Translations under genes and position numbers: made by a program
Virus record (IMG/VR): IMGVR_UViG_3300032136_000002
Coordinates: 1 to 64,000 of that record
Strand: one strand, 5' to 3'
DNA from: a virus
DNA: 64,000 nucleotides
The notes under the pieces: model-generated
Databases searched by the model: none
What the model saw: the letters and a program-made list of their open reading frames with translations, nothing else
Told to the model about the DNA's origin: nothing
Shown here: one piece after another, positions 155 through 57,198 of the stretch
Numbering within the stretch: position 1 is the stretch's first letter
Layout of the letters: each line of letters opens with the position of its first letter

Positions 155-423
155 CTAATTTTGCGCGCTGGAGACCCCCGGCTTTAGCCGGGGGAGGAAA
201 GCGCGCCCTCCTTTTGGGTTGTAAAGCGCTTCGCTCGTGATAGAACGCTGCTGGGGGCCGGGCGGGCCCCAGCAGCACGCGGAGAGACGGTAAGACATCG
301 GCGAGGCTTCCCCTCGACGCTGCGCGTCGAGGGGAAACGTGAACCATCTTGATAGGTTGTGACTAATAACCAAAGTTGCTTCCTTTCAAGAATCCCTCGC
401 CTTTAGGCGAGGGAGGACGTCAA
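155..423 (+). mobile_element. non-autonomous IS200/IS605-family element (269 bp, PATE/MITE-like) carrying a TnpB omegaRNA-like scaffold, copy 1
   Basis: Left end GAGA+hairpin CCCCCGGCTTTAGCCGGGGG; right end GAAT+hairpin CCCTCGCCTTTAGGCGAGGG...TCAA; no TSD; preceded by CCAT; near-identical to 13127-13395 and 56930-57198. Confidence 0.9.
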
Positions 424-570
424 ATAGCACCAACTCCTTGACTGCATGGATGAATGCGTTACGCTCACCTGCGCACATCACCCATGTAACCTCCACTTTG
501 ACTTCAGGGGCCCTGATACTGGGGGGCATCAGAGCCCCTCTTTCCTACTCCAATCAAGACCCGAAACGGT

Positions 571-1176
571 CTACTCTGGTACGCCATCTGGTATGCGACG
601 AACGCCGTCAATGCCGACGATAGTCATCGGGCTCGGCCACCGCATCAGGTCTTCTATTTCGGCGATAATCTTGTCCTTGGCCCGGAAGGCCGAGGGGTCG
701 GTTGCCATGACCCTGAGCGTCACCGTAAAATGGTGAACTCGCTCCTCTAAGCTGGCGGGTTTAGCCGCCAAGGGCGGGAGCTGTAACTGAACCCCCTCCA
801 TGTACTCTGGGAACCGGTTGATGAGTTGCTGCTGCAATGGGTCATTCTGCAGCACCACCCACCTCACGATGTCGTCGATGACCGAGTCCTGTCCGTCAAG
901 CAAGCCCATCGGTATCCAGTCAATCAGCCGGTGGACGTACCAGCCGGCCGGTCCAAGAGAGGGTCCGAGTGAGTGCGGCCGGAAGGAACCTATCTCCTGC
1001 TCCCCGTAGCAATCGGGTAAATCGTTAACTCGGAGCTTGATCCCCTCGTATAGCACAAAATCCTGTTTCCTCACTTTCACCCCCAACGCTCCCGTCCTCC
1101 AAAGTTGATGCGCCCCCGCTTCTATCTCCTTCACCAAACTCGGCGCACGTACCTGCTTCCACAGGGTCTTGCACAC
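571..1176 (-). CDS. hypothetical protein (true start uncertain, probably downstream)
   Basis: ORF co-oriented with neighbours; 5' part overlaps 1025-1930. Confidence 0.4.
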   Translation of the reverse strand: MCKTLWKQVRAPSLVKEIEAGAHQLWRTGALGVKVRKQDFVLYEGIKLRVNDLPDCYGEQEIGSFRPHSLGPSLGPAGWYVHRLIDWIPMGLLDGQDSVIDDIVRWVVLQNDPLQQQLINRFPEYMEGVQLQLPPLAAKPASLEERVHHFTVTLRVMATDPSAFRAKDKIIAEIEDLMRWPSPMTIVGIDGVRRIPDGVPE

Positions 1177-1930
1177 CCTCCACCTCCGTATCCATCCGAT
1201 CCGTCACATAGAGCCGGAGCTGCTCAAACACTTTGTCTACCGTCACACTGGCAACCTCGCGCTCACCGGGGCTCATGAACTCTATCTCTTCCGGCTCGTA
1301 GTACAATTTCAGCGCGGCGTCGTATGCTTCCACCCGCGCTTCCCCTTGCAATCTTCGTCTGTGGTCGAAGTTCAGAAAATGCATCGAGAATAGGCTGTGC
1401 TCGAGGGGCGTCGAAGGCCAGTAGCTGGGCGTGCTCTGTTGAGCAACCCAGAAATCGACTCCCATCTCACTGTTCCCCTCCTCTCTCAGTTTGTCAGCCA
1501 GCTTCCACACGGCCTGGCGCTGCATGAGGACCTCTTCCCCATCCTCGCCACACCAATTGAATATTGTGACGTCGCCCGACCAGAACGCGATGCGGAGCTG
1601 GTGCATCGCCTGGTTGAGCTCAATCCCACGCTGAGCGTAGAGCATCGCAATACGGCAGAGGTACGATACGCACACCGCCGGCCGCTGCTTATCGTAGACG
1701 GCACAGAGCACACCCCCCAGCGTCCGCCCCTTCAGATGCATGCAGGGGAACCTGATGCGCAGCTTCCCCTTTTCTACATTCTCGTCGGGCCGAGCAAACC
1801 GATCAGGGTTCCCGGGGTTCGCCGCCTCTGCCTCCTCAGGGGTGCAGGAAGCGTTCAAGATGGCACAGCAGAGCCCGCACCTGACGCACAGCTCACTTGT
1901 CGAACGCAACGAATCGTCGTGGTAGAACAT
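1025..1930 (-). CDS. YkgJ-like CxxCxxCC Fe-S/Zn-cluster protein
   Basis: CVRCGLCC...PCMHL...CAVYDKQRPAVCVSYLC motif pattern; RBS AAGGAGG. Confidence 0.7.
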   Translation of the reverse strand: MFYHDDSLRSTSELCVRCGLCCAILNASCTPEEAEAANPGNPDRFARPDENVEKGKLRIRFPCMHLKGRTLGGVLCAVYDKQRPAVCVSYLCRIAMLYAQRGIELNQAMHQLRIAFWSGDVTIFNWCGEDGEEVLMQRQAVWKLADKLREEGNSEMGVDFWVAQQSTPSYWPSTPLEHSLFSMHFLNFDHRRRLQGEARVEAYDAALKLYYEPEEIEFMSPGEREVASVTVDKVFEQLRLYVTDRMDTEVEGVQDPVEAGTCAEFGEGDRSGGASTLEDGSVGGESEETGFCAIRGDQAPS

Positions 1931-1995
1931 GCGCCCTCCCTTGTATCGCCCCCCTCAAGGCAGGCCAACCCACCCGGGCCATGCCCTTGAATCTG

Positions 1996-2835
1996 TTACC
2001 GGCCCTGTCGAGTTTGACGCTTGAGCCACTCATGGCCTTTGTCCGTGATCTGCAACCCAGCTTTAACCCGTCCTGTGAAAGGGTCCTCGATGCTACACCG
2101 CTCAATCAGCTCGTGCTTGAGCAGCGGCCGAGCAGCGTTGCGCACTGTGCGGACGGTCTTGACCTGAATACCCGAGGTCTCCGTAACCACCTCCCCCTTC
2201 TTGACGCCAAAGACGCGGGTCACCAAATCGGGATACGTCAACCCGCCTTTAGGACATGACGACAGAGCGCGGAGGACTCCAGCCACGTCGGAGTTGAGCG
2301 AGGGGTAATCAGGAGAGGCAGACTGTTTCACCACCGGCTTCTTGGAGGCCTTGGGTTTCGGAGCGGCCTTAGGCTCAGCCTTGGCCTTAGGTTTGGCCTT
2401 CGTTTTGGGCGGGGCTTTAGGCTCAGCCGGCGTGACGAACTTGTCCTCCATAGCCTTGGCCGCCTGCGCTGCCCGCCTCTTCGCCATCTCAAGCGGGTCC
2501 AGGTCCTCTACCTCACCCATCGCAGGGGGAGCCGGGCTCTCAGCTTGTACGGGCTGAGGCGTGGCCTTGGGCTTTGGGATAGGTTGGGGTGCTTCCGCCT
2601 TCTTCGGCGGCTCAGGAGCGGGCTCAGGGGCCTTCATGCCGCCCGACCGGTCAATGCGCCGCGGCGGCGCCTTTTCCTCCTTCCCGTTGCTCTTGGCCAA
2701 GCGGAGCTTACTCAAGCACGAGTCAATCATCACCCTCGGCGTGAACACCTCTTCAATAGGCTCAAGCGAGTCACTCACCCCGCGGAGCTCCGCGTTCCTC
2801 GCTCGAATCGCGTTCAGTCTCTTCATCCCGTCCAT
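1996..2835 (-). CDS. Pro/Ala/Lys-rich protein with possible C-terminal winged-helix DNA-binding domain
   Basis: Histone-like PKAKAKP linker; C-terminal ...LQITDKGHEWL is typical of a wHTH wing; RBS AAGGAG. Confidence 0.6.
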   Translation of the reverse strand: MDGMKRLNAIRARNAELRGVSDSLEPIEEVFTPRVMIDSCLSKLRLAKSNGKEEKAPPRRIDRSGGMKAPEPAPEPPKKAEAPQPIPKPKATPQPVQAESPAPPAMGEVEDLDPLEMAKRRAAQAAKAMEDKFVTPAEPKAPPKTKAKPKAKAEPKAAPKPKASKKPVVKQSASPDYPSLNSDVAGVLRALSSCPKGGLTYPDLVTRVFGVKKGEVVTETSGIQVKTVRTVRNAARPLLKHELIERCSIEDPFTGRVKAGLQITDKGHEWLKRQTRQGR

Positions 2836-3097
2836 TTGTTACTCCTTGAAGCGGCGGGTGTGGCCAGAACGCGCCGCCCTCGAGCTCGAGTACGACACCT
2901 CGTTCACCCACCACGTGAAAAAACCATCCCCCACACAAAGGGCATTTCATCTCCTGACCCTGTTGAGGGGCAGGAATCGACGAGCTCACGGGCACCATGT
3001 CCTCGGCCAGGACATCAGCCCCGCTAAAATCACGGCCCACAGCAAGGCAGTCATAGAGCGGCTGCCTACACTGGACGCAGATAATTCGAGCGGTCAC
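2771..3097 (-). CDS. small Zn-ribbon protein
   Basis: GTG start after AGGAGG; CVQC and CPLC pairs. Confidence 0.55.
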   Translation of the reverse strand: MTARIICVQCRQPLYDCLAVGRDFSGADVLAEDMVPVSSSIPAPQQGQEMKCPLCGGWFFHVVGERGVVLELEGGAFWPHPPLQGVTNGRDEETERDSSEERGAPRGE

Positions 3098-3206
3098 CGT
3101 TATCCTCCTTGTACCCTCTTCGCGGCCATTTTTACCCCCTTTCCCCAGGCTGCATATTGGGGTAACGTGGATCACGGATCAACTAGAATGGAGGGATTTT
3201 CCCCAC

Positions 3207-3431
3207 ATGAAGATGCGTGAACGCGTTCGTGCGTGCGGCACTCAAATCCAGATTACTGTCTTGCAAGGCCCCCCGAGGCACGCCTGGGTGGTCACAATGC
3301 ATGAGGCTCACGACCTGGTCGATAGCCTCTGCGATGCGATTGAGGAGGCGCAAGGCAACGCCAAGGTGCCAAGCCACCCTTTCGCCCCCAAGCGAGGTAA
3401 GAAGAGCCGGCCGCTGTCCCGCGGCAACTGA
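3207..3431 (+). CDS. hypothetical protein
   Basis: ORF after GGAGG, starting a small plus-strand cluster. Confidence 0.4.
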   Translation: MKMRERVRACGTQIQITVLQGPPRHAWVVTMHEAHDLVDSLCDAIEEAQGNAKVPSHPFAPKRGKKSRPLSRGN

Positions 3432-3453
3432 ACCCCAACCACGGATACCAACG

Positions 3454-3780
3454 ATGAACCACGAGCTCACGCTCCGCGTATCAGACCCACAGCTGGCCCT
3501 CCTTCAGCAAGAGGCCCGGCGCATGAGTGCCCAACACGGGCGAGAAGTGACCCCCGCCGAAGTGTGCCGCGCCCTCATCGACCTTCACCGCTACCGAGTG
3601 AGGCAGGTGGGCAATGCAGACCCGCGGACACTGATGTGGCTCTACCAGGAAGGACCATTTAATGCCCGACGAACTGAACTGGGACCCCAAAGCAGTCGTG
3701 GACGAGATGACCCCTACCGCCTTCCCCCCGCAAGAGGAAGCTCCCCTCCCAGCAGTAACCCACCCCGAGGGCTCGATTGA
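3454..3780 (+). CDS. ribbon-helix-helix-like DNA-binding protein
   Basis: MNHELTLRVSDPQLALLQQEARR...TPAEVCRALID shows a strand-helix-helix pattern. Confidence 0.5.
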   Translation: MNHELTLRVSDPQLALLQQEARRMSAQHGREVTPAEVCRALIDLHRYRVRQVGNADPRTLMWLYQEGPFNARRTELGPQSSRGRDDPYRLPPARGSSPPSSNPPRGLD

Positions 3781-3958
3781 AGCCCGCTTTGGGATAACGC
3801 CCAGGGCAGCGGCCACAGTGGCCTTGGGGGTGTGCTCGCTTTACACGGCGCCTGAGATTGACCAGCTCGAACTGGCGGCTCGGGGCATCTATGTGGACGA
3901 GAACGAACTGTTTGACCTCATCCACCGCTACTACGCCAGCCCCGTAAAGCGCCCTTAA
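3662..3958 (+). CDS. hypothetical acidic protein
   Basis: RBS AGGAAGGA; followed by a hairpin. Confidence 0.5.
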   Translation: MPDELNWDPKAVVDEMTPTAFPPQEEAPLPAVTHPEGSIEARFGITPRAAATVALGVCSLYTAPEIDQLELAARGIYVDENELFDLIHRYYASPVKRP

Positions 3959-3959
3959 A

Positions 3960-3999
3960 GCAGGAACCCCAGAGCTGACGGTGTGCTCTGGGGGCCTGC
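3960..3999. terminator. stem-loop after the 3662-3958 gene
   Basis: GCAGG..CCCCAGAGC...GCTCTGGGG..CCTGC inverted repeat. Confidence 0.4.
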
Positions 4000-4122
4000 C
4001 TACGGATCAAGTAGATGGAGTACCTCTTGGACCAGCTCTCCAGGAGGTTATCCAAATGTAGCAGAGGCGCTCACCGGCGCAACACGAACTAGGAGCGCAG
4101 ATCCGGTTTTCAACTAATTTTC

Positions 4123-4290
4123 AGGCAGCAGACTGGACTTAGTTGACATCCTCCCCGGCATAAACGCCGGGGATTCCTAAGCGGCCTTTGCCGCTCGGGA
4201 GCGTCTCTTGCGAGCTGCTCGCGGTTTCTGCTTCGCTGAGGGCCCCAATGAGCCCTCTCCACAGACTGACAGGGTCTGCCCGACCCTCAA
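4123..4290 (-). ncRNA. TnpB omegaRNA (reRNA) with right end at 4143 and guide CTAAGTCCAGTCTGCTGCCT
   Basis: Scaffold overlaps the tnpB 3' end (GGGTCGGGCAGACCC...GTGGAGAG...GAAGCAGAAACC) and ends GAAT-CCCCGGCGTTTATGCCGGGG-AGGATGTCAA. Confidence 0.75.
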
Positions 4291-5406
4291 GATATTCTTA
4301 GCAGCGTTGATGTCCGCATCATCCTCGTGGCCGCAGGCCACGCAGACAAAACGTGCTTGTGTACGACGACTCTCAGAGCTGACGTGCGCGCATCGTGCGC
4401 ACGTCTGACTGGTGTACTTCGGCGGTACAGCTACAACCTTCCCACCTCGCCATTGCCCCTTGTAGGTGAGCTGGCGGCGAAATTCAAACCACCCCTGGTC
4501 GAGAATAGCTTTGTTCAAGCCTGCTTTGCTGCGGACGTTTTTCCCCGGCTCTTCCGTGGTCCCACGTGCCGATGCGCTCATGTTTTTAACTTTCAAATCC
4601 TCAACATACACCACCGCGTGGCTTTTGCTGATGGCCGTCGAGGTTTTGTGCAGAAAGTCGTTTCGAGCGTCGGCAATGCGGATGTGCAGCCGAGAAACGA
4701 CTGCTTTCTGTTTTTTCCAGTTGCTGGAAAATCTCTTCTTCCGTGACAGGGCACGTTGCGCGGTGCCCATTTGCTTCTCCAAACGTCGGAAGCTATCTAT
4801 GGGCTGAACAAGCTCGCCGGTCGACAGGGCGGCGAACTTCGCCACCCCCATGTCGATGCCGACCTCGGACGAACTTGGATGAATGGAGTCTGCTACCTCT
4901 CGCTCGGTCTGCACCGAGATGAACCAGTGGGCACCACGGCGCTTGACGGTAACGTTTTTGATGGTTCCTTCGATTTCTCGGCTCTTACGGAACCGTACCC
5001 AGCCAAGCGCTGGCAGCTTGATTCGACGACCATTGACCCCGATGCTGTCGTTCGCCTGCGAAAAACGGAAGCTATCGAACGACCGGCCCTTCTTCTTGAA
5101 GCGAGGAAAACCTTTTCTTTTCAAGAAGAAGTCGCTGAAGGCCTTGCCCAAATCCTTAAGAACCTGTTGCTGTGGCCTACTGTGAACCTCGGAGAGAAAC
5201 GAAAGCTCTGGGTCGTTTCGGGCTACAGTGAGTTCGCGACAAAGCTCTGCATAGTTCAGTGTTTTTGAGTGCTTACTTAGACGATGCTTCTGCAGGGCAA
5301 GAGCTGAATTCCAAATAAAGCGTATAGCTCCCGCCGTGCGCTCCAAAATCACACGCTGCCCTTCGGTAGGCTCGATTCTGAACTTGTAGCCTTGACGCCG
5401 CAGCAT
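4177..5406 (-). CDS. tnpB: IS200/IS605-family RNA-guided endonuclease TnpB (409 aa)
   Basis: N-terminal GYKFRIEPT HTH_OrfB; RuvC residues GIDMG, VEDL and DADINAA intact; C4 Zn finger CARC/CVAC; no tnpA in the window. Confidence 0.95.
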   Translation of the reverse strand: MLRRQGYKFRIEPTEGQRVILERTAGAIRFIWNSALALQKHRLSKHSKTLNYAELCRELTVARNDPELSFLSEVHSRPQQQVLKDLGKAFSDFFLKRKGFPRFKKKGRSFDSFRFSQANDSIGVNGRRIKLPALGWVRFRKSREIEGTIKNVTVKRRGAHWFISVQTEREVADSIHPSSSEVGIDMGVAKFAALSTGELVQPIDSFRRLEKQMGTAQRALSRKKRFSSNWKKQKAVVSRLHIRIADARNDFLHKTSTAISKSHAVVYVEDLKVKNMSASARGTTEEPGKNVRSKAGLNKAILDQGWFEFRRQLTYKGQWRGGKVVAVPPKYTSQTCARCAHVSSESRRTQARFVCVACGHEDDADINAAKNILRVGQTLSVCGEGSLGPSAKQKPRAARKRRSRAAKAA

Positions 5407-5876
5407 CGCGCTCGTGTAGCACCGGTGTGCGCTCCCAACAAGCAGAAAAGCTACTTCACCTAACTCCCGCTGAACCCTAGGGGCGCACCTACCCCCGTGT
5501 AAACCACTGAGACCACTCAAAGCGCAGGATCTTGTTTCAGCCCCCGCGTAACTTTGATACAACGCCCGTTCACGTAATCCGTTGGTGAAACAAGATGAAG
5601 CGCAGACAACACAGGGGAGGGAGCAGCCAACACGCTTAAAAGACGAAAGCCATCAGCCCGGCAGAACTGATGGCTCCTAAGTCTGTCTATTGACCTAACC
5701 AGTCAAGGCGAGTCCTACCGCGAGTCGTCCCGGAGGTCAATAGGTAAAGAGTGCAGAGCTGCCTCTTATTGAGGCACTATGTATACATCTCCGCACATTC
5801 AATCGTCTTTTTATTGCGTCACCTGCCGAGTGAACGTTGTCGCTCCCCCTGTTCTGACTGCGCAGGGAGCAACGAA

Positions 5877-6764: not shown

Positions 6765-6932
6765 GGTAACGACTGAGCACAGCTGACACAGGGGATAGAG
6801 GAGCTGGCCGGCGACCTCAATGGTGAAGTGCGCCTTGTCAACCCCTCACCCTGTTCGGGACCAAAACGACACGAACACGGCTAGGGGCGTGTGGGAACTG
6901 CGGTGAACTGATTGAGATGTCGACCAGCTAAG

Positions 6933-6963
6933 AAGAAGGGGCGCCTGCAGCACGTCCCTTCTC
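6933..6963 (-). terminator. intrinsic terminator-like hairpin between convergent genes
   Basis: AGAAGGGGCG...CGTCCCTTCT inverted repeat. Confidence 0.45.
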
Positions 6964-6970
6964 CCTGAAA

Positions 6971-7246: not shown

Positions 7247-7255
7247 GTCATCCCC

Positions 7256-7770: not shown

Positions 7771-7781
7771 CAGTTGAGGAG

Positions 7782-11978: not shown

Positions 11979-12803
11979 TTACGTCCTGATCTTGAGGGTC
12001 AGTGGCTGACTGTCGGGAACCCTCTCCAGGGCCTCAACTGCGAGGGGCCGGCCGCCCAACGACGGCGGCTTGAGCGACCCTGACAGTTTGGGTCCTGTGC
12101 GAGCTCCCAATGCTGAGCCGCGCATACCCGGTCCCGGCGATCCGTCCAAAGCTGCAGCTGTCACCCGCCGAGCACCAAACCCAGCGGTCTGCATCTGCAC
12201 CTCAATCGCCTCTGCCTTCCGTAACTCTTGCTGTGTAATGGTATCTTGCCATTGAAAGTAGAAAGGCACCACTACCGGTACGTTATAGGCCTCGCCCTCT
12301 ACGGCGCCCTGAATGAGGGCTCCGGGGGGACTGGCTGACATCAACTGAATGCGTTGGCCGAAGTCGTGGAACCCACTCTTCAGCATGATGCGCCGCAGAA
12401 TCCAACAGTGCCTGGCTAGAATCCAAGCCAGGTACTCAGCGGTGTTCTTGTGCCGACCCACGCAGTTGTACGTGGCGTTGCCTGAGAGCAGGTCGGTGTG
12501 CTTGCGCTCACCGGTGGCCATGTTCATCGACTGCATCTGATCCATAGCTGCGCCGGCGAAGGCCATGGGCGAACGGATGAAGACTATAGCTGGGCGGTGA
12601 CCCACCATCTCGCTCTCGAGGGGAGCCTTGTCTGTGATGAGGACCTCGGTCTGAGTCTCGTCCGCATCCCAGAAGAAGCACCCCTCACCCCGGGGGGCCT
12701 GGGCGAAGAGGCTCTGCGCGAAGGAGAGGCACAGTCGAGTCACGTGGAGGAGTGGGTTCTCTCCCCAGCTGCTGACAGTGTCTCCATCGAGCAAGGTGCT
12801 CAT
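11979..12803 (-). CDS. putative tail terminator/neck protein
   Basis: Position between head-closure and sheath genes; RPAIVF motif. Confidence 0.5.
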   Translation of the reverse strand: MSTLLDGDTVSSWGENPLLHVTRLCLSFAQSLFAQAPRGEGCFFWDADETQTEVLITDKAPLESEMVGHRPAIVFIRSPMAFAGAAMDQMQSMNMATGERKHTDLLSGNATYNCVGRHKNTAEYLAWILARHCWILRRIMLKSGFHDFGQRIQLMSASPPGALIQGAVEGEAYNVPVVVPFYFQWQDTITQQELRKAEAIEVQMQTAGFGARRVTAAALDGSPGPGMRGSALGARTGPKLSGSLKPPSLGGRPLAVEALERVPDSQPLTLKIRT

Positions 12804-13126
12804 GCGGGACCTCTCAGTTGCCGGCCCTTCTCTTCGGCCTCGTCCATCACCTGCTGCCGGCCCTTATGCATGGCCTTTCCAGCGAGATAGGTCCCCAAGG
12901 CCACAACTGTGGGCAGGCCCGCTTTGCCCGCCCGGCTCGCCAGAGCTTTCACCCCTTGAGGTCCATACTTTTTCTCGAGGGCGATGCGGCCCAGGCCGCC
13001 GACGAGGTGAGCCGCGCCCGCGGCGGCCCCCGCCGTCCCGATGAGCTTAGCCTCTTGCTTCAAGCGCGCTTTGGTCGCCTCGTCCAAGGCCACCTTGATC
13101 AACTCGTCACAAAAATAGAGGTTCAT
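12800..13126 (-). CDS. small K-x-A motif internal protein
   Basis: N-terminal FCDELIKVA; Gly/Ala-rich helices. Confidence 0.65.
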   Translation of the reverse strand: MNLYFCDELIKVALDEATKARLKQEAKLIGTAGAAAGAAHLVGGLGRIALEKKYGPQGVKALASRAGKAGLPTVVALGTYLAGKAMHKGRQQVMDEAEEKGRQLRGPA

Positions 13127-13395
13127 CTAATTTTGCGCGCTGGAGACCCCCGGCTTTAGCCGGGGGAGGAAAGCGCGCCCTCCTTTTGGGTTGCAAAGCG
13201 CTTCGCTCGTGATAGAACGCTGCTGGGGGCCGGGCGGGCCCCAGCAGCACGCGGAGAGACGGTAAGACATCGGCGAGGCTTCCCCTCGACGCTGCGCGTC
13301 TCGGTGAAACGTGAACCATCTTGATAGGTTGTGACTAATAACCAAAGTTGCTTCCTTTCAAGAATCCCTCGCCTTTAGGCGAGGGAGGACGTCAA
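13127..13395 (+). mobile_element. 269-bp non-autonomous IS200/IS605 omegaRNA element, copy 2
   Basis: Near-identical to 155-423; preceded by TCAT; ends TCAA. Confidence 0.9.
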
Positions 13396-14288
13396 CCGTC
13401 GCCCCTCTCGTAGCCGTTGATGGCTCGCTCAGCGAGATAGCCCTCAGTGGTCTCGGTGTGCCCCTCAAGATTGTGCGGGTTGGTGAACTCCCGCTCGGGC
13501 GCCGGCTCGTAGGTCTTGAGGTCGCTCAGGTCGATGGGGAGCTTCCACTCGATGTCCTGCCGCGGGATGTGATGCAGGACGAGCTCATAGTGGAGCGGGA
13601 AGCGGAGGCGTTGGGTCGACGAGACCCGCTGCACCCTCCATCGCCGGTTCTCGAACTCGACGAGCATGTCGAGGGGCTTGATGGGGAACTCAGCTACGCA
13701 CCGAGCAGTTGCGTTCTCCTGCTGAGTCTTCTGGATGTCCATCAGCTCGACGTGCTTGGGCGTCGGGTCAATCTGGACGCGCAGCTCAATCGGATCGAGG
13801 AACCCTCGGACGTAAGTCGTGTCGTAGCAGGTCACGCACCCGCTCTTGACCTGCTGCCCCGTCACGTAGTCGTAGCACGAGGGGCAGCGCTGGCCGAAGG
13901 TGCGCCTGGGAAAGAGGAAGGCCCGCCGGCCAATGTGCTCTCGGAAGAGGATGTGCTCGAGCCGCCGCACTTCGAGGGCGATCAAGTCAGGCGTTGGGCC
14001 CTTGGCCGCCGTCGAGCTGTACGTGGTCTCGCTGTCGCTGACTCGCCGCACCTTGATGCGGTAGTGGAGCTCGGCGTAGAGGTCCCACCTCGGGACTTGC
14101 ACGTCCCGGAAGTAGTACTTGTCCGTGAACTCCTCAGTGACCGGGTCGAAGGGGCCCAGGGGACTCTGGCTCCGCTCCACGGTGAAGCGGTAGTCCCACA
14201 CGTCCTCCCTCGTTGGCTCAATCTCCCAGGAGACGTCCAGGTAGTCCAGTGACAGGCTGGTCACCCGCAGGTTGGTGACCGTGAGCAC
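13392..14288 (-). CDS. putative head-closure/neck protein (FN3-like N-terminus, Zn-binding insert)
   Basis: LDVSWE..YRF.VERS..YRIKV FN3-like pattern; CPSC/CVTC; ENRRWRVQRV head-closure-like segment; stop codon supplied by the element end. Confidence 0.6.
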   Translation of the reverse strand: MLTVTNLRVTSLSLDYLDVSWEIEPTREDVWDYRFTVERSQSPLGPFDPVTEEFTDKYYFRDVQVPRWDLYAELHYRIKVRRVSDSETTYSSTAAKGPTPDLIALEVRRLEHILFREHIGRRAFLFPRRTFGQRCPSCYDYVTGQQVKSGCVTCYDTTYVRGFLDPIELRVQIDPTPKHVELMDIQKTQQENATARCVAEFPIKPLDMLVEFENRRWRVQRVSSTQRLRFPLHYELVLHHIPRQDIEWKLPIDLSDLKTYEPAPEREFTNPHNLEGHTETTEGYLAERAINGYERGDG

Positions 14289-20014: not shown

Positions 20015-21244
20015 TCACATCATTGGGTTGCCGCCAGCCGGCGAGGGCTCGACGGTGGACGGGACATTGGAGGCTCCAGGAACGCTACCGTTTTGGGCCT
20101 CTTTCTCAGACGCACCTGACTTGGAATCGAGGCGAGACGCGACTCTGCAGAACTTGCACTCCCCTTTCTCAAGGCCTTCCTGTTCACAGGTACAGCCCTC
20201 GGAGGCAATCTTGCTGATCAGTGCCCGAGCTGCGGCGATTTTGAGCTTCCGCTCACTCGCGATCTTCGCCCCGGCTTGGTCAACAACTTGGGCTCCCAAA
20301 GTCTGGTCCAATGCCTTATCGGTAGAGCGGGTCAAGGCCTTCTCACTGAGCAGAGCCGCGAGGTCCTGCTTTGAAAGAGCCTTGGCCTTCCGTTTGGTCA
20401 GATTCAGAGCAGCCTCGTTGGAGGCGAGCATGGCCCGCTGTCCTTCAGCTCCCGCGGCGAGCGGGGCGTTGAGTGGACGGTCCTCTGGCAAGACCGCACT
20501 CTTCGAGGCACGGATGTTGGTCTTGGCGTTGTCCTCCGCATACTTCTGATGCATGGCGGCGACGTACTCTTGGAGCGACCCCGTTTTGGCTTTCGCCCCA
20601 CGCTCTTTGCCCACGTACTTGTGGATGTCCCCGAAAGACATGGAACTGGGGTCTTTCCCTGTCGCCTTTTGGTAACGAGAGAAAGCCCCCTTGAGCTCCG
20701 GACTCTTGGGGTTCTGCGCGAGGACATCAGCTAAGGCCGCTTGTTTGGCCTGAGCAGCCTCATTGGTCGCCATGGCGGCAGGAGCATTCTCCTGCAGCAC
20801 CTTCTCTTGAGCAGGGTGGGTCGGGATCTTGGCCCTGGCCTCACCAAAGTTGGACGGCGCCGACTCCGCCTGCTGCTTCACATTGGTGGGCATCTGAGTG
20901 GCGTTCTCAGGGGCCCCTTCCATGGCCGTGACTATCCGGCCGACCGAAGACTGGTCGCCCTGGAGCAGGACGCGGACCACCTCTTCGATGGCACTGGCCA
21001 TCTTCTCCACACGGTCCCGGTCGGTGTCCTCCGACTCAGGGTTGTCCTGACCGCCGCCTTGGGCCTTTTCTTCCTTCTCGGCCTCGCGCTCGGCCTCATC
21101 TTTCGACTTGCGAGAGGGGGCTTTGCTTTCGCCTTGAGCTTCTGCCGATTCATCCATCTCATCGGCTGCTTGGGCGATCTTGCTCAGCGCCTGCCCCTCT
21201 GCGCCAGCCAAGACCCCATCGATCATCTGTTGGAGCGTGAGCAT
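20015..21244 (-). CDS. scaffold-like K-x-A motif protein (409 aa); first six codons and RBS appear to be a recoded replacement
   Basis: About 8 KxA motifs; a second copy of its 5' end lies at 21562-21579. Confidence 0.7.
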   Translation of the reverse strand: MLTLQQMIDGVLAGAEGQALSKIAQAADEMDESAEAQGESKAPSRKSKDEAEREAEKEEKAQGGGQDNPESEDTDRDRVEKMASAIEEVVRVLLQGDQSSVGRIVTAMEGAPENATQMPTNVKQQAESAPSNFGEARAKIPTHPAQEKVLQENAPAAMATNEAAQAKQAALADVLAQNPKSPELKGAFSRYQKATGKDPSSMSFGDIHKYVGKERGAKAKTGSLQEYVAAMHQKYAEDNAKTNIRASKSAVLPEDRPLNAPLAAGAEGQRAMLASNEAALNLTKRKAKALSKQDLAALLSEKALTRSTDKALDQTLGAQVVDQAGAKIASERKLKIAAARALISKIASEGCTCEQEGLEKGECKFCRVASRLDSKSGASEKEAQNGSVPGASNVPSTVEPSPAGGNPMM

Positions 21245-21319
21245 GCGTGTATCCTTTCAGAAACACAGAGGAAACATGGGTGCTGACGCTTCCCGTGCTT
21301 CCGCCAAGTTACTTTCCGT

Positions 21320-21581
21320 TGCGAAGCTCCCAGCTTTTGCTACAAAGCCGCTGGGGGCCGGGCGGGCCCTTTCAGTACGTGGAGAGACGGTAAGACAGCA
21401 CCGGGGCTCTCCCTCGGGGTTGCTCGTTTCGTTGAAGCGTGAACCATCTTGGAAAGAGCGGGCGATAACCAAGCCCACTCCACCCAAGAAGCCGCTTTTT
21501 TGATGGAAGCGGTGGACGCCAAGTGCGCCCCCGCCACCAACCAGAAGGCGGTGGACGTCAACTGCTGTAGCGTGAGCATGC
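21320..21581 (+). ncRNA. stand-alone TnpB omegaRNA scaffold with duplicated 3' end and two guides
   Basis: Scaffold GCTGGGGGCCGGGCGGGCCC...GGAGAGACGGTAAGACA...GAAGCGTGAACCATCTT shared with the 269-bp elements; repeat GCGGTGGACGYCAA at 21509-21522 and 21548-21561; promoter-like TTGCGA-N16-TACAAA. Confidence 0.75.
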
Positions 21582-21591: not shown

Positions 21592-21879
21592 TCACACCCG
21601 CACGGGTGGCGGGGGCACCATGTGGGCCCCCGCCACCACCGAGTTGTCCGGTTGCACGACTTCTGTGTTTGGAACGGTGTAGTTGGTCTTCTGCAGGTTG
21701 GTCTTGGAGACCACCTTCCCAACAAGCTGCTTAGACGTAGTGGGTTTGGACGGATTGCTTTGCATCCGTTTCCCATCCCCTCCAGGGTTGGGAGGGCTGA
21801 TGATTGAGGGGTGTGAAGTGTACGCTGCAATCTTCAGCAGCTCCTCAACCATCGCCCGATAAAAGACCGGCGTGATCAC
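21592..21879 (-). CDS. small K-x-A motif internal protein
   Basis: N-terminal FYRAMVEELLKIAA. Confidence 0.7.
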   Translation of the reverse strand: MITPVFYRAMVEELLKIAAYTSHPSIISPPNPGGDGKRMQSNPSKPTTSKQLVGKVVSKTNLQKTNYTVPNTEVVQPDNSVVAGAHMVPPPPVRV

Positions 21880-35866: not shown

Positions 35867-36565
35867 TTAGTACCGAGGGTATCCCGCTTGCCGCTGACCC
35901 ATAGCGCGCCCGCCGGCAAAGCCTGCAGCTGCAGGTACGGCCAAAGCAGTTCCACCCGCCAACGCGCCAACACGCCCCATGTGAGTCCCCATGACTCCGC
36001 GGACGCCACCAGCGCGGTACGCTTCACCCATTTGCTTGATGCCTCCAGACAGCCCCATCTGCCGCCACCCGCGAACACCCTTAGCCAGAGACGACGCGGC
36101 GGCTTGTGTCCCGCCGGCAATGCCCCGACCTATGTCCGCCGCACCGCGCCCCATGCTCCGTACCCCACCAACAACTCCTCCTTGAGCAGCGGCCGGCGCT
36201 GCTGCTGCTGCAGCCGCTGGAGCAGCACGAGGCACCGGAGGTGGCGTTGCTGCCCGTCGAGGTACCGGAGGTGGCGTTGCTGCCCGTCGAGGTACCGGAG
36301 GTGGCGTTGCTGCCCGTCGAGGTACCGGAGGAGGCGTTGCTACGCGCCCAGCGTGTGCCGGAGCCGCCGCAGTGGGAACTGTCGGCCGCGGTGCAGGGGG
36401 ACCCGTCAACTTAGCTTTCGGAGCACGCGTTGCTGACCTTTTCACCGCTTGCGTTAACGTTCGGCCAACTGCCCCCGAAAAAGCCTCTTTGACCAGTTCC
36501 TCACGCAGGAGGTCGCCAATCTCACCAAAAGCTGAACTGAAGAAGACCTCTTGATCGATATGCAT
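35867..36565 (-). CDS. K-x-A motif internal protein with Pro-rich tandem repeat
   Basis: F...EELVKEA N-terminus; (RRAATPPPVP)n; RBS GAGAGGGG. Confidence 0.65.
   Translation of the reverse strand: MHIDQEVFFSSAFGEIGDLLREELVKEAFSGAVGRTLTQAVKRSATRAPKAKLTGPPAPRPTVPTAAAPAHAGRVATPPPVPRRAATPPPVPRRAATPPPVPRRAATPPPVPRAAPAAAAAAAPAAAQGGVVGGVRSMGRGAADIGRGIAGGTQAAASSLAKGVRGWRQMGLSGGIKQMGEAYRAGGVRGVMGTHMGRVGALAGGTALAVPAAAGFAGGRAMGQRQAGYPRY
36228..36341. repeat. 30-bp coding tandem repeat, about 3.8 copies
   Basis: Unit CGAGGTACCGGAGGTGGCGTTGCTGCCCGT. Confidence 0.9.
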
Positions 36566-50208: not shown

Positions 50209-50697
50209 ATGGCTCTGATTGCAACGAAACCTGCTATGCGCTGTTTCGCCGATGTCGATACATTTGACCCGGCCAAAGATCGGTGCGCCGCATGCCACTT
50301 CCAGGATGCATGCGAGAAACAAATCGACGAAGACAACGTTGACGAACTCGAGCAAGAGGACAGCGAAGACGAGCTGGACGGCGTCAGTCGTTTAGCTGGG
50401 AGGGCGAATCCGTTTGCCTCCGCAGTGAGCGGATTCGCTCCAGGGGTAACGCAATATCACACAGTGACTCCGACAGCACCGTATTCCCCGCCCAGTCCCA
50501 ACCTCTCCTGTGAAGGCGTGTCGCCTGTAGTTCAGGTCCCACGGCAAGAGGGTGAAGAAGTCTGGGGTCGGCTGGCCAAGAACGTTGGCCTTGGTGCTTT
50601 AGCCAGGGCCCTGGTTGAAGCGAGTCTGGTCGCAGAGGACGAGCGAACGCGACCGGTGGGTCAGTGGGGCCGAGTGGATCGACCACGAAAGAAATAA
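50209..50697 (+). CDS. hypothetical Cys-containing protein
   Basis: RBS AGGAGG; CF...CAAC...C motif. Confidence 0.6.
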   Translation: MALIATKPAMRCFADVDTFDPAKDRCAACHFQDACEKQIDEDNVDELEQEDSEDELDGVSRLAGRANPFASAVSGFAPGVTQYHTVTPTAPYSPPSPNLSCEGVSPVVQVPRQEGEEVWGRLAKNVGLGALARALVEASLVAEDERTRPVGQWGRVDRPRKK

Positions 50698-50722
50698 CTA
50701 AGAGGGTGATTCATCGTCCGGG

Positions 50723-52645: not shown

Positions 52646-52660
52646 CAATTAGGAGTAGTT

Positions 52661-53395
52661 ATGGATCAAACAGATGCGAGCTCCTACTTGAGTCACCTCG
52701 ACTGGGAGCTCGCGTGGTGCAAATGTACGCTGTGCCCTGAACTAGCCAAGCACCGCACCTATGTCATTCCCGGTTGGGGCAACCCAAAATCCAACATCAT
52801 GCTGGTCGGGGACAAGCCGGACGAAGAGGACGACGCAGCGGGTTACCCCTTTGTTGGCCGAGTAGGGAACATCCTCCGTGTGCTCCTCTACTACTACGCC
52901 GGTCTGTCCGACCATGAGTACTTCCTCGACTACGTCGTGATGTGCCGTACGGCGCGCGTGGCCGGGGGAGTGCTCAAACCCCGAGAGCCCAAAGCCGAAG
53001 AGGTCAAGAACTGCCAGGAACGGCTTCAGGGCGCCATCTACACCGTCGACCCCACCATCATCGTCGCCCTGGGCCCTCTGGCCCTGCGGGCGCTGACCGG
53101 TGAGGCCGGCGGCATCACAAAGACCCGTGGGTCAGTGTTCACTGCCAAAATCCCCGGCGTGCTCACTGAATCCATCATGTACCCCGTACTCGCCACCTAC
53201 GCCCCCAGCTACCTCGCGGTCAACACAAGCAAGCGAGAAGTAGCTAATGGGCTCTGGGACCAAATGAAAGCCGACTTGCGACTGGCAACTCGGCTCAGCG
53301 ACATAATGAACGAGAAATACTACGGAATCCCCCGGCCAGACCGGGAAGCTCTTGTCGAACAGAGGAAGGAAGAAGCCCGTGCACAAGATGAATGA
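52661..53395 (+). CDS. uracil-DNA glycosylase family 4
   Basis: CTLC, VGDKP..EDD..G.PFVG, IVALG, TYAPS. Confidence 0.85.
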   Translation: MDQTDASSYLSHLDWELAWCKCTLCPELAKHRTYVIPGWGNPKSNIMLVGDKPDEEDDAAGYPFVGRVGNILRVLLYYYAGLSDHEYFLDYVVMCRTARVAGGVLKPREPKAEEVKNCQERLQGAIYTVDPTIIVALGPLALRALTGEAGGITKTRGSVFTAKIPGVLTESIMYPVLATYAPSYLAVNTSKREVANGLWDQMKADLRLATRLSDIMNEKYYGIPRPDREALVEQRKEEARAQDE

Positions 53396-53810
53396 AAAGC
53401 GTGTTCAGCTCGCCCAGCAGCGCTACGAAGAGACCCGGGAGGCCCGAGACACCTTCTGGGTAGAGAACGCGGAGGTACTCGAACGCTATCAAGAGCTGTG
53501 CGAGCTGAACAACATGGCGCTCAAGCGCCTTGACCAAGCTTGCAGGGAGACCAAGGTCAGTGCAGGCCCGATGAAAGTACGCATCGCCCAACACCCGGTC
53601 TATGACGTGGACTACCTGGAGAATCTGTTCTCCACTCAGCCCGAGGTGTGCAAACAGCTCATCTCGGTGACCAAGAAAGTGAACCGGCCCTACTTTGAGA
53701 AACTGGCTAACCAAGGCTGCTTTACCGAAGAGACTCTCGGCCGCGCCATCACGCGTGTGGAGGAAAAGGTTCAGCTCATCGGAGCCCCTAAGCCTACAAT
53801 TCTTCAATGA
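53379..53810 (+). CDS. hypothetical protein
   Basis: Coupled ORF with an N-terminal coiled coil. Confidence 0.6.
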   Translation: MHKMNEKRVQLAQQRYEETREARDTFWVENAEVLERYQELCELNNMALKRLDQACRETKVSAGPMKVRIAQHPVYDVDYLENLFSTQPEVCKQLISVTKKVNRPYFEKLANQGCFTEETLGRAITRVEEKVQLIGAPKPTILQ

Positions 53811-54157
53811 AAATCAAACACCACATCGAAATCACGATCAAAGGGAAGGAGCCGTTTGTCTTGCCCCAAGAGATACCGAAATGGGTTGAAGAGCTCAAAG
53901 GTCACGTGGAGTCACTGGTTGGCGACGGGAAGGCCCAAATCTCCAGGAGCCGCCAATTTGGCTTGGCCACTGACTTTTCCCGAGTCAAAGTGTCCGGGCA
54001 CTTTGGGGTTACCCTGACGTGCAATCAGGACATCGAAACGATGAAGATGGCTGCTGACCTCGCCGGCTACATCGCTGACACCATTGTCTTTGAGGAAGAC
54101 TACGAGACGATGACCAACGTTTTGAGGCACTACAATGTTGAGCAACAAGCCAAGTAA
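53807..54157 (+). CDS. hypothetical protein
   Basis: ATGA overlap with the upstream gene. Confidence 0.6.
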   Translation: MKIKHHIEITIKGKEPFVLPQEIPKWVEELKGHVESLVGDGKAQISRSRQFGLATDFSRVKVSGHFGVTLTCNQDIETMKMAADLAGYIADTIVFEEDYETMTNVLRHYNVEQQAK

Positions 54158-54458
54158 AATTCGCGGGGTAGCCTGCACCAAGATTGAGATGAACATTCAC
54201 CCCGCCCACGGGGCCGCAGTCGAGGTGAGCTACGTGCTACACACTGAGGCCGGGAGAGCCGTGGCCGAGGGGAAGATGAGTGGGCCCTGGCCACAGGAAG
54301 TCGCTACTGCTGTGGACACACTCGTGAAATCAGTAGAGGGCACGATATTGAATAGTATATTTGGAGGTGAGACAAATGAACCCGATTTTGGAGGGAGCAC
54401 ACACTCAGAGGGCAATCGTTCCGCTCTCTTTGGAGCTCGAGTCCCAACCCGAGATTAA
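54135..54458 (+). CDS. hypothetical protein
   Basis: Coupled ORF; RBS GAGG. Confidence 0.5.
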   Translation: MLSNKPSKIRGVACTKIEMNIHPAHGAAVEVSYVLHTEAGRAVAEGKMSGPWPQEVATAVDTLVKSVEGTILNSIFGGETNEPDFGGSTHSEGNRSALFGARVPTRD

Positions 54459-55470
54459 AATTCACAAGTTCGACGAAGTCTACTCCGCGGTAGACCAGCT
54501 CAACCAGCTGAACATCCCCTCCCCACCTGAAATCAGGACTCTCGCCGACCTTGAGTTTGAGGATGCTGACGTAGTCAACGCTCCCGGCATCGGCCGGCTG
54601 CGCATGACCGACTGGGCCCAGCGGCGTATCGGGAGCATGATGGGGGTGAAATGGTCCAAATTCTTCGGGCCGATGGAACCTGACGCCATCAAGACGGCCA
54701 TCACGAGCCACCTCAACGGCGTGGGCGATAAAGGACAGGGTATCAAGCTGGTCAGCCGCGAGCTGATGGAGAGTGAGTCCTACAAGACCGACGGCATCCT
54801 GCGCGGCGTAGTCAGCCCTTCCTACAGTGAGTTCCGCGACGTCCACGCTCTGGACCGCCTGTACGAGGTGGCCGGCAGCATACTCGAGGTCGAGTGGGGC
54901 TTCACCGAGGTTCACCTCCTCGACAGTGGATCTTACTTCAACCTGATCCATACCTACCCATTCCCTCTCATACCTGGATCGGGTGACACCGCTTACGTGG
55001 GCCTGCAGCTGCGCAACAGCGAAGTAGGCGCGCATTCTTGGGAAGGTATCGCTCGGGTCCTGCGCCTTGTGTGCGTCAACGGTATGATGGTCCCCTTGTT
55101 CTCAGGCAAAGTGTTCCGGTTCATCCACAAGGGCATGCAGCTGGAACGGATTGACCAGTCAATCGAGGAAGCATTGGATCAGTGTTACCAGTCAATGGAG
55201 CAGCTGCCCCCGATGTACGGGAAGCTCTTGGACCGTCCTATCGACGAGCCCGAAGAGCACCTCCGTTCCTTCCTCGAGAGTCACAACGTCAGCTTGACCG
55301 TAAGGGATGCTGTGGTCGATGCGTACGCTACTGAAGAAATCGAAGGCGACAACGCTTACCGCGCACTGCAAGCCATCACCCGGATGAGTCCTGCTTTGCG
55401 CGACGACCCCCAACGTCAGCGTGACATTGAGATTCTGGCCGGCCAATACACAGAACACATGTTGCAGTAG
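54376..55470 (+). CDS. DUF932/DUF945-like protein
   Basis: GLQLRNSEVG...RLVCVNGM...FIHKG motif set; RBS GGAGGT. Confidence 0.7.
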   Translation: MNPILEGAHTQRAIVPLSLELESQPEIKIHKFDEVYSAVDQLNQLNIPSPPEIRTLADLEFEDADVVNAPGIGRLRMTDWAQRRIGSMMGVKWSKFFGPMEPDAIKTAITSHLNGVGDKGQGIKLVSRELMESESYKTDGILRGVVSPSYSEFRDVHALDRLYEVAGSILEVEWGFTEVHLLDSGSYFNLIHTYPFPLIPGSGDTAYVGLQLRNSEVGAHSWEGIARVLRLVCVNGMMVPLFSGKVFRFIHKGMQLERIDQSIEEALDQCYQSMEQLPPMYGKLLDRPIDEPEEHLRSFLESHNVSLTVRDAVVDAYATEEIEGDNAYRALQAITRMSPALRDDPQRQRDIEILAGQYTEHMLQ

Positions 55471-55473
55471 GTC

Positions 55474-55510
55474 GAGGGGAGCGGTGGGCCCGACCTGCCG
55501 CTCCCCTTCT
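55474..55510 (+). terminator. stem-loop
   Basis: GAGGGGAGCGG...CCGCTCCCCTT inverted repeat. Confidence 0.5.
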
Positions 55511-55530
55511 GTCTTCTGAGGAGGTGTGAT

Positions 55531-56928
55531 TTGGCGGTGCACAACGAGCTGCGGCTAATCAGCAAGGTCATTGAGACCGGAGACGTACGTCCCCTGATTC
55601 GTTCCCGCATGACACCATCGTTGTTCCGCAATCCTGAAGCCCGCGCCATGTTCGAGGAGCTGTGGCGCTACTACCACAACCAACGCCACTACGGCGAGAC
55701 CCCCAAGCGTGGGTGGATGGAGTCGAAGTTTCAGAGCTTTACCCTCTTCCCTGGCATCGACGAGTCGGTCACAGAGCTGGTCGAGTACGTTCGGCGTGAC
55801 ACGCTCGCCCAGCGCATCTACGAAGTGCTCACCTCAACCTATGAGCACATCCACACCGACCCCCATGAAGCCCTCAACCTGCTCTACCAGCAGGCCGGCG
55901 AGCTCAAATCCATCAGTGCCCACAAGGGCTCGAACTTCACGCTACACGAGGTGACTGAAGAAATCTGGGAGCGATACCTAGAAAAAGAACGTTTACGCCT
56001 ATCTGGAGGAGTCAGTGGCATCCCATGGCCTTGGGCGCCACTGAACAAAGTAACTGGAGGACTCGAGAATGAACAGCTCATCGTCCTTTACGGTCCTCCA
56101 AAGTCAATGAAAACCATGTTCGCCGTTCAACTCGCAGTCCATGCCTACCTGTGGAACAACCAGCGGGTCCTTCTCTACTCCGCTGAGATGCCACGAAAAG
56201 ATATGCAGGACCGCATGGCGGCGTGCATCGCTGAGGTGGACTACGGTCGCATTGACCTTGGCTACCTCACCGTCGACGAAAAGGCGCGCTACAAGGATGC
56301 TCTCGACTTCATCCGCGACGAGGCCCTGGCCAACCCGTCCGGCCGAGGACCTATGCTCCACTACGCTTCGGACCACGAAGCAGACGTGCGAGGCAACGTA
56401 GCCCTCATCCGGTCCCTGGCCGAAGAGCTCGAAGCCGACCTGGTCATCGTCGACTCCTTCTATCGCCTGGCTGACCGGTCAGGCCGAGTGGACCTCGACT
56501 GGAAGGTCGTCGGCAACGTCGCTCAGGATCTTAAAGCGCTGGCTAAGCACTTGGGCATTCCCGTCCTCGGCATCACTCAAGCCAACGAGGGCAAGCAGCT
56601 GGCCTTCTCAAAGGTTATCAGCATGGAGACTGACCTGGCCATGATGGTGGAGATGGCCTACGAGTGTTCAGAGTACACGGACCTCAACCTCACCTTCACC
56701 GCGAGCCGCAAGATCAAACAGCCCGGATTTCAACTTCGAGTCCAACCCTACACCCGGTTCTCCTTCCAAGGGTGGTTGGAGTTCAAGGACGCAGAGTCAA
56801 ACTACGAGGTTGACCAGGGCACCAAAGCAACCAACTTCGGCAACAAGCGGGCACCCCGTCCCAAGGGCCCGCCTCCCATCAACAACGACGCCGCGCTCAT
56901 TCACGACCTGGTAACCCGAGCACACTGA
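55531..56928 (+). CDS. DnaB-like replicative helicase
   Basis: GIPWPW, Walker A GPPKSMKT, SAEM, VIVDS, ITQAN. Confidence 0.9.
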   Translation: MAVHNELRLISKVIETGDVRPLIRSRMTPSLFRNPEARAMFEELWRYYHNQRHYGETPKRGWMESKFQSFTLFPGIDESVTELVEYVRRDTLAQRIYEVLTSTYEHIHTDPHEALNLLYQQAGELKSISAHKGSNFTLHEVTEEIWERYLEKERLRLSGGVSGIPWPWAPLNKVTGGLENEQLIVLYGPPKSMKTMFAVQLAVHAYLWNNQRVLLYSAEMPRKDMQDRMAACIAEVDYGRIDLGYLTVDEKARYKDALDFIRDEALANPSGRGPMLHYASDHEADVRGNVALIRSLAEELEADLVIVDSFYRLADRSGRVDLDWKVVGNVAQDLKALAKHLGIPVLGITQANEGKQLAFSKVISMETDLAMMVEMAYECSEYTDLNLTFTASRKIKQPGFQLRVQPYTRFSFQGWLEFKDAESNYEVDQGTKATNFGNKRAPRPKGPPPINNDAALIHDLVTRAH

Positions 56929-56929
56929 A

Positions 56930-57198
56930 TTGACGTCCTCCCTCGCCTAAAGGCGAGGGATTCTTGAAAGGAAGCAACTTTGGTTATTAGTCACAACCTA
57001 TCAAGATGGTTCACGTTTCACCGAGACGCGCAGCGTCGAGGGGAAGCCTCGCCGATGTCTTACCGTCTCTCCGCGTGCTGCTGGGGCCCGCCCGGCCCCC
57101 AGCAGCGTTCTATCACGAGCGAAGCGCTTTACAACCCAAAAGGAAGGCGCGCTTTCCTCCCCCGGCTAAAGCCGGGGGTCTCCAGCGCGCAAAATTAG
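56930..57198 (-). mobile_element. 269-bp non-autonomous IS200/IS605 omegaRNA element, copy 3 (inverted)
   Basis: Reverse complement of copies 1 and 2; lies between the helicase stop and the primase ATG. Confidence 0.9.

Follow-up and report, generated by a model that had tools for sequence, protein, structure and literature searches.

Probable guide-RNA-only IS200/IS605 elements at gene starts in a phage genome

The closest described relatives of the elements considered here are the IS608 transposon of Helicobacter pylori and the palindrome-associated transposable elements (PATEs) of Geobacillus stearothermophilus and Haloquadratum walsbyi. IS608 carries tnpA and tnpB between ends marked by subterminal hairpins; it is cleaved 19 nt 5' of the foot of the left hairpin and, on the right, at the sequence TCAA 10 nt 3' of the hairpin (PMC3201880), both sites being read by pairing with the four bases that lie 5' of each hairpin (PMC3201880, PMC10055086). 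The transposon-adjacent motif (TAM), the transposon-encoded motif (TEM) and these DNA guides covary (PMC10055086). PATEs often encode omegaRNAs, which need to be used in trans (Meers et al. 2023, PMC10055086), and the PATE-like elements of G. stearothermophilus are protein-less, retain both ends and an omegaRNA, depend on TnpA and TnpB in trans, and have guides that read TAM and TEM (PMC10055086). Those of H. walsbyi (Dyall-Smith et al. 2011, PMC3119063) are core-deleted IS605-type elements with near-terminal palindromes, no target duplication and families of >90% identity; one of them, HqIRS71, retains a C-terminal part of tnpB. Here we analyse three 269-bp repeats, termed mini-elements, in a window comprising the first 64 kb (64,000 nucleotides) of the 102,280-bp IMG/VR virus record IMGVR_UViG_3300032136_000002 (CheckV completeness ~56%), and conclude that they probably arose by deletion from an IS608-like IS200/IS605 transposon, as PATE-type derivatives that encode no protein.

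OmegaRNA-bearing PATEs are already published (Meers 2023), and the mini-elements add a further example of that kind. They differ from the Geobacillus elements in residing in a phage genome, in being represented by three to four very young copies, in lying antisense to genes and flush with their start codons, and in following the TAM YCAT. The Haloquadratum elements, for their part, are archaeal and chromosomal, and their description predates knowledge of omegaRNAs (PMC3119063).

The mini-elements and their ends

Copy A occupies positions 155-423 (+), directly 3' of the TAM CCAT (151-154); copy B lies at 13127-13395 (+), 3' of TCAT (13123-13126); and copy C at 56930-57198 (-), where TCAT is the complement of 57199-57202. 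Conservation begins immediately after these tetranucleotides and ends after ...TCAA, and beyond those limits the flanks share nothing. Because left and right flanks are unrelated in each case, there is no target-site duplication. The three copies differ from one another by 2-4 nt. A fourth young copy of 269 bp was found at 1478-1746 of a 1.9-kb JGI metagenome contig (Ga0316201_10174440; hereafter L150). Its sequence is identical to the A/B/C consensus and so represents the presumed master copy, from which B and C each depart by one substitution and A by a single three-base cluster (329, 330, 333). The L150 flanks do not occur in the 102-kb record, whether compared as DNA or as protein; the contig may derive from a stretch of this phage that was not sampled, or from a different replicon. 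Recent mobility is indicated by the at least 98.5% identity of four copies in different contexts, and the position of each within one mutational event of a common master points, at the level of sequence, to very recent spread.

The architecture of the ends is that of IS608. Each end has a GC-rich hairpin of 8 bp that closes on a TTTA loop and precedes AGGA; the two hairpins lie on the same strand and have the same stem length, and there are no terminal inverted repeats. The left hairpin begins 20 nt inside the element and has GAGA directly 5' of it (in copy A, guide 171-174 and hairpin 175-194); the right hairpin has GAAT directly 5' and is followed by 10 nt ending in TCAA (guide 390-393, hairpin 394-413, TEM 420-423). 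GAGA pairs with TCnT and GAAT with TCAA, so that TAM and TEM are complementary to the four-nucleotide guides at the hairpin feet, with IS608-like spacing. The pattern of this pairing in IS608 is reportedly known from work of 2008 by Barabas. GAAT is the right-end guide of IS608 as well. The left spacing is thus 20 nt against 19 nt in IS608, and the right spacing (10 nt) and the TCAA are the same in both; IS608 differs in targeting TTAC, by means of the guide AAAG, where the mini-elements target TCAT with GAGA and contain no genes (PMC3201880). No transposase or nuclease gene lies within the 269 nt, just a 37-codon tnpB tail, and each mini-element consists of a left end (~78 nt) joined to the ~190-nt omegaRNA-coding 3' part of a tnpB element.

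Four independent young copies (A, B, C and L150) follow CCAT, TCAT, TCAT and TCAT, respectively, without duplication, and the rule that GAGA specifies TCnT fits fully at three of these sites and at three of the four positions at the remaining one. Members of the wider family combine left-end guides and TAMs as AAAA-TTAT, CAAA-TGAT, GAAA/GAGA-TCAT and AAAG-TTAC; this survey placed the TAMs by the pairing rule itself and is therefore partly circular, a matter of consistency rather than of independent proof.

Folding of the repeat as RNA reveals far more structure than shuffled controls show (z = -7.3). An Rfam search gave no family at its gathering score for the element, the best being a weak, partial HgcC match on the 3' hairpin (24.4 bits against a gathering score of 50). 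A covariance model, R1, was therefore constructed from 19 bacterial tnpB loci, none from this genome, that share the right-end motif and whose tnpB products are 43-60% identical to that of the phage over the aligned stretch (some being partial); of its 29 pairs as determined with RNAalifold, 18 have compensatory changes. The model recognises the 3' end of a tnpB gene resident in the window (4143-4308, -; 93 bits) and, over its full length of 163 positions, the three mini-elements at 233-423 (+), 13205-13395 (+) and 56930-57120 (-), with 62-65 bits and E ~1e-21 (for copy A, 62 bits and E ~5e-21). It also matches an older, diverged copy at 21333-21522 (41 bits) and, with its hairpin part alone, the left-end hairpins of the mini-elements (18 bits); no further omegaRNA locus was detected by R1 in the remaining 38 kb (64-102 kb). 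By these matches, the interior of the mini-elements is a predicted full-length omegaRNA of the family found at the 3' ends of tnpB genes. In agreement with this, the tnpB tail of copy A (239-349, 37 codons and then a stop) aligns with the region from NAAKNI to the stop codon of the window's tnpB.

The guide regions are the 20 nt of flank directly 3' of each right end: 424-443 (+) for copy A, 13396-13415 (+) for copy B and 56910-56929 (-) for copy C. That of A spans the displaced ribosome-binding site (RBS; AAGGAG on the gene strand) of the gene that starts at 154, and that of C is antisense to the last codons and stop of a helicase gene. None of the three has a second match in the 102-kb genome.

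Relative to R1, the mini-elements carry a 35-nt insertion in one hairpin, and it is within this insertion that the three-base cluster of copy A is found (329-333; GAGGGG, against TCGGTG at 13301-13305 and at the equivalent place in copy C). With the cluster, a palindrome that is otherwise imperfect becomes a perfect hairpin of 13 bp, and a long-range pairing of 6 bp that is predicted for the other copies is lost. From its sequence, it looks like a single templated mutation of the quasi-palindrome (template-switch) type.

The diverged copy 4 (21245-21561, +) is 78% identical to the young copies over the core. It is without a left-end hairpin, has two right-end tails, ending at 21522 and 21561 (the second being 21548-21561), and adjoins the start codon of the gene at 20015-21244 (-). 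The 20 nt after its second tail approximately repeat 21227-21246, with two mismatches that are both synonymous in that gene, and the segment 21227-21246 is preceded by TCAT (21223-21226). The 16 nt after its first tail match 21622-21637, beside a CCAT, with one mismatch. The left part of copy 4 provides AAAGGA 7 nt ahead of the ATG of gene 20015-21244.

Placement at start codons

The CAT that precedes copies A, B and C is the complement of the ATG of three antisense-facing genes. These are an open reading frame (ORF) at 1-154 (-) that runs off the end of the contig, an ORF at 12800-13126 (-), and, for copy C, a gene for a DnaG-type primase (57199-58212, +) that has Pfam and PHROG support and whose relatives align from residue 1-4; on its other side copy C is bordered by the gene for a DnaB-like helicase (55531-56928). 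L150 again lies 3' of TCAT, and the CAT there opens an antisense reading frame at an ATGA overlap. In a census of the 102-kb genome based on rough gene calls, YCAT occurs 47 times at starts, 109 times at other non-coding positions and 1359 times in coding sequence. The probability of finding all three insertions at starts is ~3e-5 under random use of YCAT and ~0.03 if gene-disrupting insertions are merely lost, falling to ~0.01 when L150 is included.

Reconstruction of the empty sites in silico, by removal of the element, gives a picture of what would have been there before. Site A has AAGGAG 10 nt upstream of the ATG; site B is an ATGA stop/start overlap preceded by GAGAGGGG; site C consists of a stop codon, one base and the ATG; and the site in L150 is an ATGA overlap preceded by GAGGAGGGG. 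The rebuilt sites of A, B and L150 thereby regain a Shine-Dalgarno motif at normal spacing. That the rebuilt sites are normal gene starts supports the assignment of CAT to the flank and an insertion exactly between RBS and ATG. At B and L150 the upstream gene (for B, 13392-14288, -) now terminates in a TGA that comes from the last bases of the element's right end.

A preliminary description of the window had reported three 269-bp copies at these positions that differ by a few bases, lack a target-site duplication and follow CCAT, TCAT and TCAT, with CAT as the antisense of a start codon. The observation of three repeats abutting start codons is confirmed: alignment and flanks bear out the copies and their boundaries, and relatives of the primase support its start. 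The view of the repeats as non-autonomous IS200/IS605 elements with a complete omegaRNA scaffold agrees with the covariance-model matches, which extend over all 163 positions in A, B and C, and with the end architecture, and the TCnT target that it derived from GAGA finds support at the four young sites. The guides that it quoted do lie directly 3' of each right end; that each would match its own reconstructed empty site follows from the architecture of the element itself. It had also proposed that a lack of TCAT or start-codon preference in further copies would count against it; the additional copy in L150 follows TCAT at a start codon and so passes this test. Its interpretation is supported in part. 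It made no mention of copy 4 or of the tnpB gene at 4177-5406.

The placement at start codons is not special to these mini-elements and recurs among TCAT-targeting relatives. We surveyed loci with the right-end motif from 120 genomes and 119 viral contigs and found a TCAT-type left end in 11 elements. In 7 of the 11, an antisense gene starts at the CAT, and a Pfam or PHROG profile matches its product from the N terminus onwards. These seven are L079:4020-4381 (a metagenome-assembled genome of Telluria sp.), L126:1671-2844 (Oxalobacteraceae) and L163, L222, L159, L196 and L153 (IMG/VR contigs), and the N termini that they abut belong to RecQ, a GNAT acetyltransferase, a phage tail terminator, phrog_6128, a RusA-like resolvase, a Holliday-junction resolvase and a glycosyltransferase. 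The element in L079, 361 bp long and ahead of recQ, is protein-less; the other six carry tnpB. On the gene strand, an outward-facing GGAG lies 6-8 nt from the junction in L079, L126, L163, L222 and L159, as well as in L266, which is also of the TCAT type; to judge by its position, this left-end GGAG would replace the displaced RBS in those relatives. An additional scan with a TCAT-type left-end pattern returned mostly chance matches and two or three usable elements, which are kept outside the main tally.

Docking on start codons thus appears, from these sequences, to be a recurrent property of TCAT-targeting IS200/IS605 elements, and is most simply accounted for by a TAM complementary to ATGA together with selection. 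ISGst5, an IscB element with the TAM TTCAT (PMC10055086), shares the same TAM word and has the same potential to dock on ATGAA starts; it differs in having an IscB-type nuclease with an upstream omegaRNA instead of a TnpB-type right-end scaffold. The literature consulted here (PMC10055086, PMC3119063, PMC3201880, PMC13565253) contains no mention of start-codon placement.

Proposed mechanism and alternatives

An explanation that unites these features, and in which as a whole we have good confidence, is as follows. A Y1 transposase TnpA, supplied by the host or encoded in the unsampled 44% of the phage, would insert single-stranded circles next to YCAT, on its 3' side. This motif is complementary to ATGR. 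With ~92% of the phage coding, survival would mainly be limited to insertions flush with start codons and antisense to the gene, and the element's terminal TCAA, read as TTGA on the gene strand, would rebuild the stop codon that is lost at ATGA overlaps. Each copy would then be transcribed antisense to the phage operon to give an omegaRNA whose 3' 16-20 nt derive from the flank. Guided by this RNA, a cognate TnpB with the same TAM would cleave the allele that lacks the element, whether this arises after excision or is present in a co-infecting phage, and recombination would restore or spread the insertion, as has been shown for the Geobacillus elements (PMC10055086). Transcription, loading into TnpB and homing are the steps that we infer here. 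If the mini-elements are active in this way, they would resemble the free-standing homing endonucleases of T-even phages (Seg, Mob), which cut the insert-less allele in a co-infecting phage so that recombination copies the insert. Recognition by those enzymes is protein-based, with one gene per site, whereas that of the mini-elements would be RNA-guided, with separate guide genes.

A number of observations weigh against this account. The 102-kb record, ~56% complete, has no match to the Y1 transposase TnpA (PF01797), and the TAM of copy A, CCAT, mismatches the predicted motif at position 1. An autonomous parent with the same ends, which the preliminary description had proposed should be sought, was not found in GTDB, IMG/VR, 401 Burkholderiales genomes or GenBank phages: a scaffold-specific pattern had no matches in GTDB genomes or in IMG/VR, BLAST of four candidate genomes and of the 401 Burkholderiales genomes returned nothing past the 34-nt right end, a search with the peptide of the tnpB remnant gave no matches, and GenBank phages contain no DNA match to the element. 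No empty-site allele was found either, the nearest IMG/VR primases being at most 45% identical and too distant at the nucleotide level, and a search for empty sites by way of two other flanking proteins found no relatives. A sigma-70 and terminator scan of positions 1-700 called no promoter, and the scaffold of the mini-elements is only ~58% identical, by model-guided alignment, to the omegaRNA of the phage's own TnpB, the same as to unrelated family members. Finally, copies A, B and C part three genes, that for primase included, from their RBSs in a phage in which ~64% of genes have a strong RBS motif, and the left end of the mini-element (...caaaattag|ATG) offers no replacement; the absence of an apparent cost is unexplained. 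Of the hits returned by the pattern searches, a single 17-mer match in IMG/VR was attributable to chance, as was the second of two matches in JGI metagenomes, the other being L150.

On the gene strand of copy C (56980-57198, +), and in the same frame in the other copies, there is an open frame of 72 codons with a TTG start 7 nt after AGGA. It ends in a TAG directly against the host ATG, and all differences between copies are non-synonymous in it. It could permit termination-reinitiation coupling to the displaced gene but may be due to chance; as a hidden protein, the frame has no Pfam or PHROG match.

The promoter-like sequence TTGYAA-N16-TAGAAC that had been pointed out in each copy is indeed present, but as a promoter it is weak. 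In addition to the negative scan, it agrees with the sigma-70 consensus at 8 of 12 positions and its -10 box is without the final T, and the TAGAAC box is, by its alignment, what is left of the conserved tnpB codons for NAAKNI. A promoter is still conceivable: the -10-like box has a TG two bases upstream, and copy 4 contains two boxes in a similar arrangement.

The lack of a called promoter is one argument for another explanation, according to which the mini-elements are purely selfish passengers: host TnpA would move them, the junctions would be tolerated, and the omegaRNA would be an unexpressed or partnerless relic. It is also favoured by the failure to identify a cognate TnpB, with the scaffold of the phage TnpB not specially related, and by the existence of terminal-only PATEs that still move (PMC3119063). 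Conservation of the scaffold among the young copies says nothing about selection, the copies being too young. Against it, however, every copy has the whole scaffold (positions 1-163 of the model), the deletion has retained exactly the omegaRNA-coding part, and the older copy 4 still has a scaffold at 78% identity; the frequent presence of omegaRNAs in PATEs (Meers et al., PMC10055086) also speaks against it. We regard passenger status as possible but doubtful, and clearly second to the account in which the omegaRNA is used for homing.

The window encodes a TnpB of 409 aa (4177-5406, -; ATG at 5406, ORF 4177-5562) with the Pfam domains HTH_OrfB_IS605, OrfB_IS605 and Cas12f1-like_TNB, i.e. a helix-turn-helix, the OrfB_IS605 core and a zinc ribbon. 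Its RuvC D-E-D triad is intact, the residues aligning with D191, E278 and D361 of ISDra2 TnpB (8BF8/8H1J). About 15 aa are inserted after the region of the RuvC glutamate. D191, E278 and D361 are the catalytic residues of the ISDra2 enzyme, which is the closest natural relative of solved structure (PDB 8H1J/8EXA; E ~1e-55). Its D-E-D motif is kept in the phage protein, and its omegaRNA likewise overlaps the 3' end of the gene. ISDra2 is, in contrast, a complete transposon with both ends. Its TAM is TTGAT. The phage tnpB has an omegaRNA (4143-4308, -) with a GAAT-hairpin-TCAA right end and a guide region at 4123-4142 (-) whose 20 nt have no other match in the genome, but no left-end hairpin can be recognised in the 345-nt upstream spacer. 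Homologues of TnpB occur in 621 GenBank phage records, so that a phage-borne tnpB is not unusual in itself. The closest relatives of the phage TnpB are in Beta- and Gammaproteobacteria, a weak hint as to the host.

The phage TnpB and the mini-elements belong to the same covariance-model family and have the same right-end motif. The tnpB remnant of the mini-elements differs from the C terminus of the phage TnpB, however, and from this and the ~58% scaffold identity it follows that the phage TnpB is not the parent of the mini-elements and not an obvious partner. It is more likely that their cognate TnpB is host-borne than that it is the phage's own. The preliminary description had proposed that both TnpA and TnpB are borrowed in trans; TnpB need not come from outside the phage, since the window encodes an intact one, albeit one whose scaffold marks it as no obvious partner.

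A role for the resident protein is central to a second alternative, which we consider unlikely, namely that the phage has domesticated a multi-guide system. Here the TnpB without a left end would load the omegaRNAs of the mini-elements and of copy 4 in addition to its own. An equally unlikely part of this proposal is that the guides direct cleavage of element-free junctions of core genes in co-infecting relatives, as a form of distributed homing or marker exclusion comparable to the free-standing homing endonucleases of T4-like phages. With no greater probability, the ends of the element lineage would have become adapted to start-codon junctions, with a TAM, TCAT, suited to docking on ATGA, a TEM, TCAA, that restores the upstream stop codon and, in many relatives, a GGAG that stands in for the displaced RBS. 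The genome does combine an intact D-E-D TnpB that has its own omegaRNA and, in the absence of a left end, is immobile, with a total of five omegaRNA loci of one covariance-model family within 57 kb, and every guide is directed at a junction of core phage genes; a theoretical case for non-restorative homing into co-infecting phages has, furthermore, been made (PMC13565253). The scaffold and tnpB remnant of the mini-elements nevertheless come from a different TnpB lineage, the nearest relatives of the phage TnpB with a defined left end use TTAT and not TCAT, and the functional-looking ends of the mini-elements suggest recent arrivals rather than fixed genes.

That the repeats are no transposon at all, and are instead a phage-specific intergenic regulatory or structural cassette (promoter, terminator or antisense RNA) duplicated by recombination, would suit their high degree of structure and their constant position at gene junctions antisense to genes, but is scarcely credible in view of their precise boundaries with a TAM and no duplicated flank, their IS608-like end architecture, the tnpB coding remnant inside them, the match of each copy to the family covariance model, and the identical copy in the unrelated sequence context of L150.

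On the reading that we prefer, in which the mini-elements are guide-RNA-only derivatives that depend on proteins in trans, they would constitute a clean natural example of such IS200/IS605 elements spreading within a virus. Their exact empty sites are defined, which makes excision, TnpB-dependent retention and phage-to-phage homing directly testable. The docking of TCAT on starts suggests how single-strand transposons reach safe harbours in gene-dense genomes, and makes one ask how expression of an essential gene, that for primase being an example, is maintained after loss of the RBS. For the annotation of phages, it would mean that these 270-nt gaps are not promoters, and it is of relevance to the mining of compact TnpB/omegaRNA pairs.

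Two further features of the genome are recorded here. Coverage of this phage by profile libraries is poor: most of the large ORFs tested (601-1388 aa) were without a Pfam match, and even the best IMG/VR relative of the primase shares only 45% identity. In coding sequence at 36198-36377 there is a tandem array with a 30-nt unit, detected as five overlapping 60-nt copies, just upstream of an ORF of 2039 aa.

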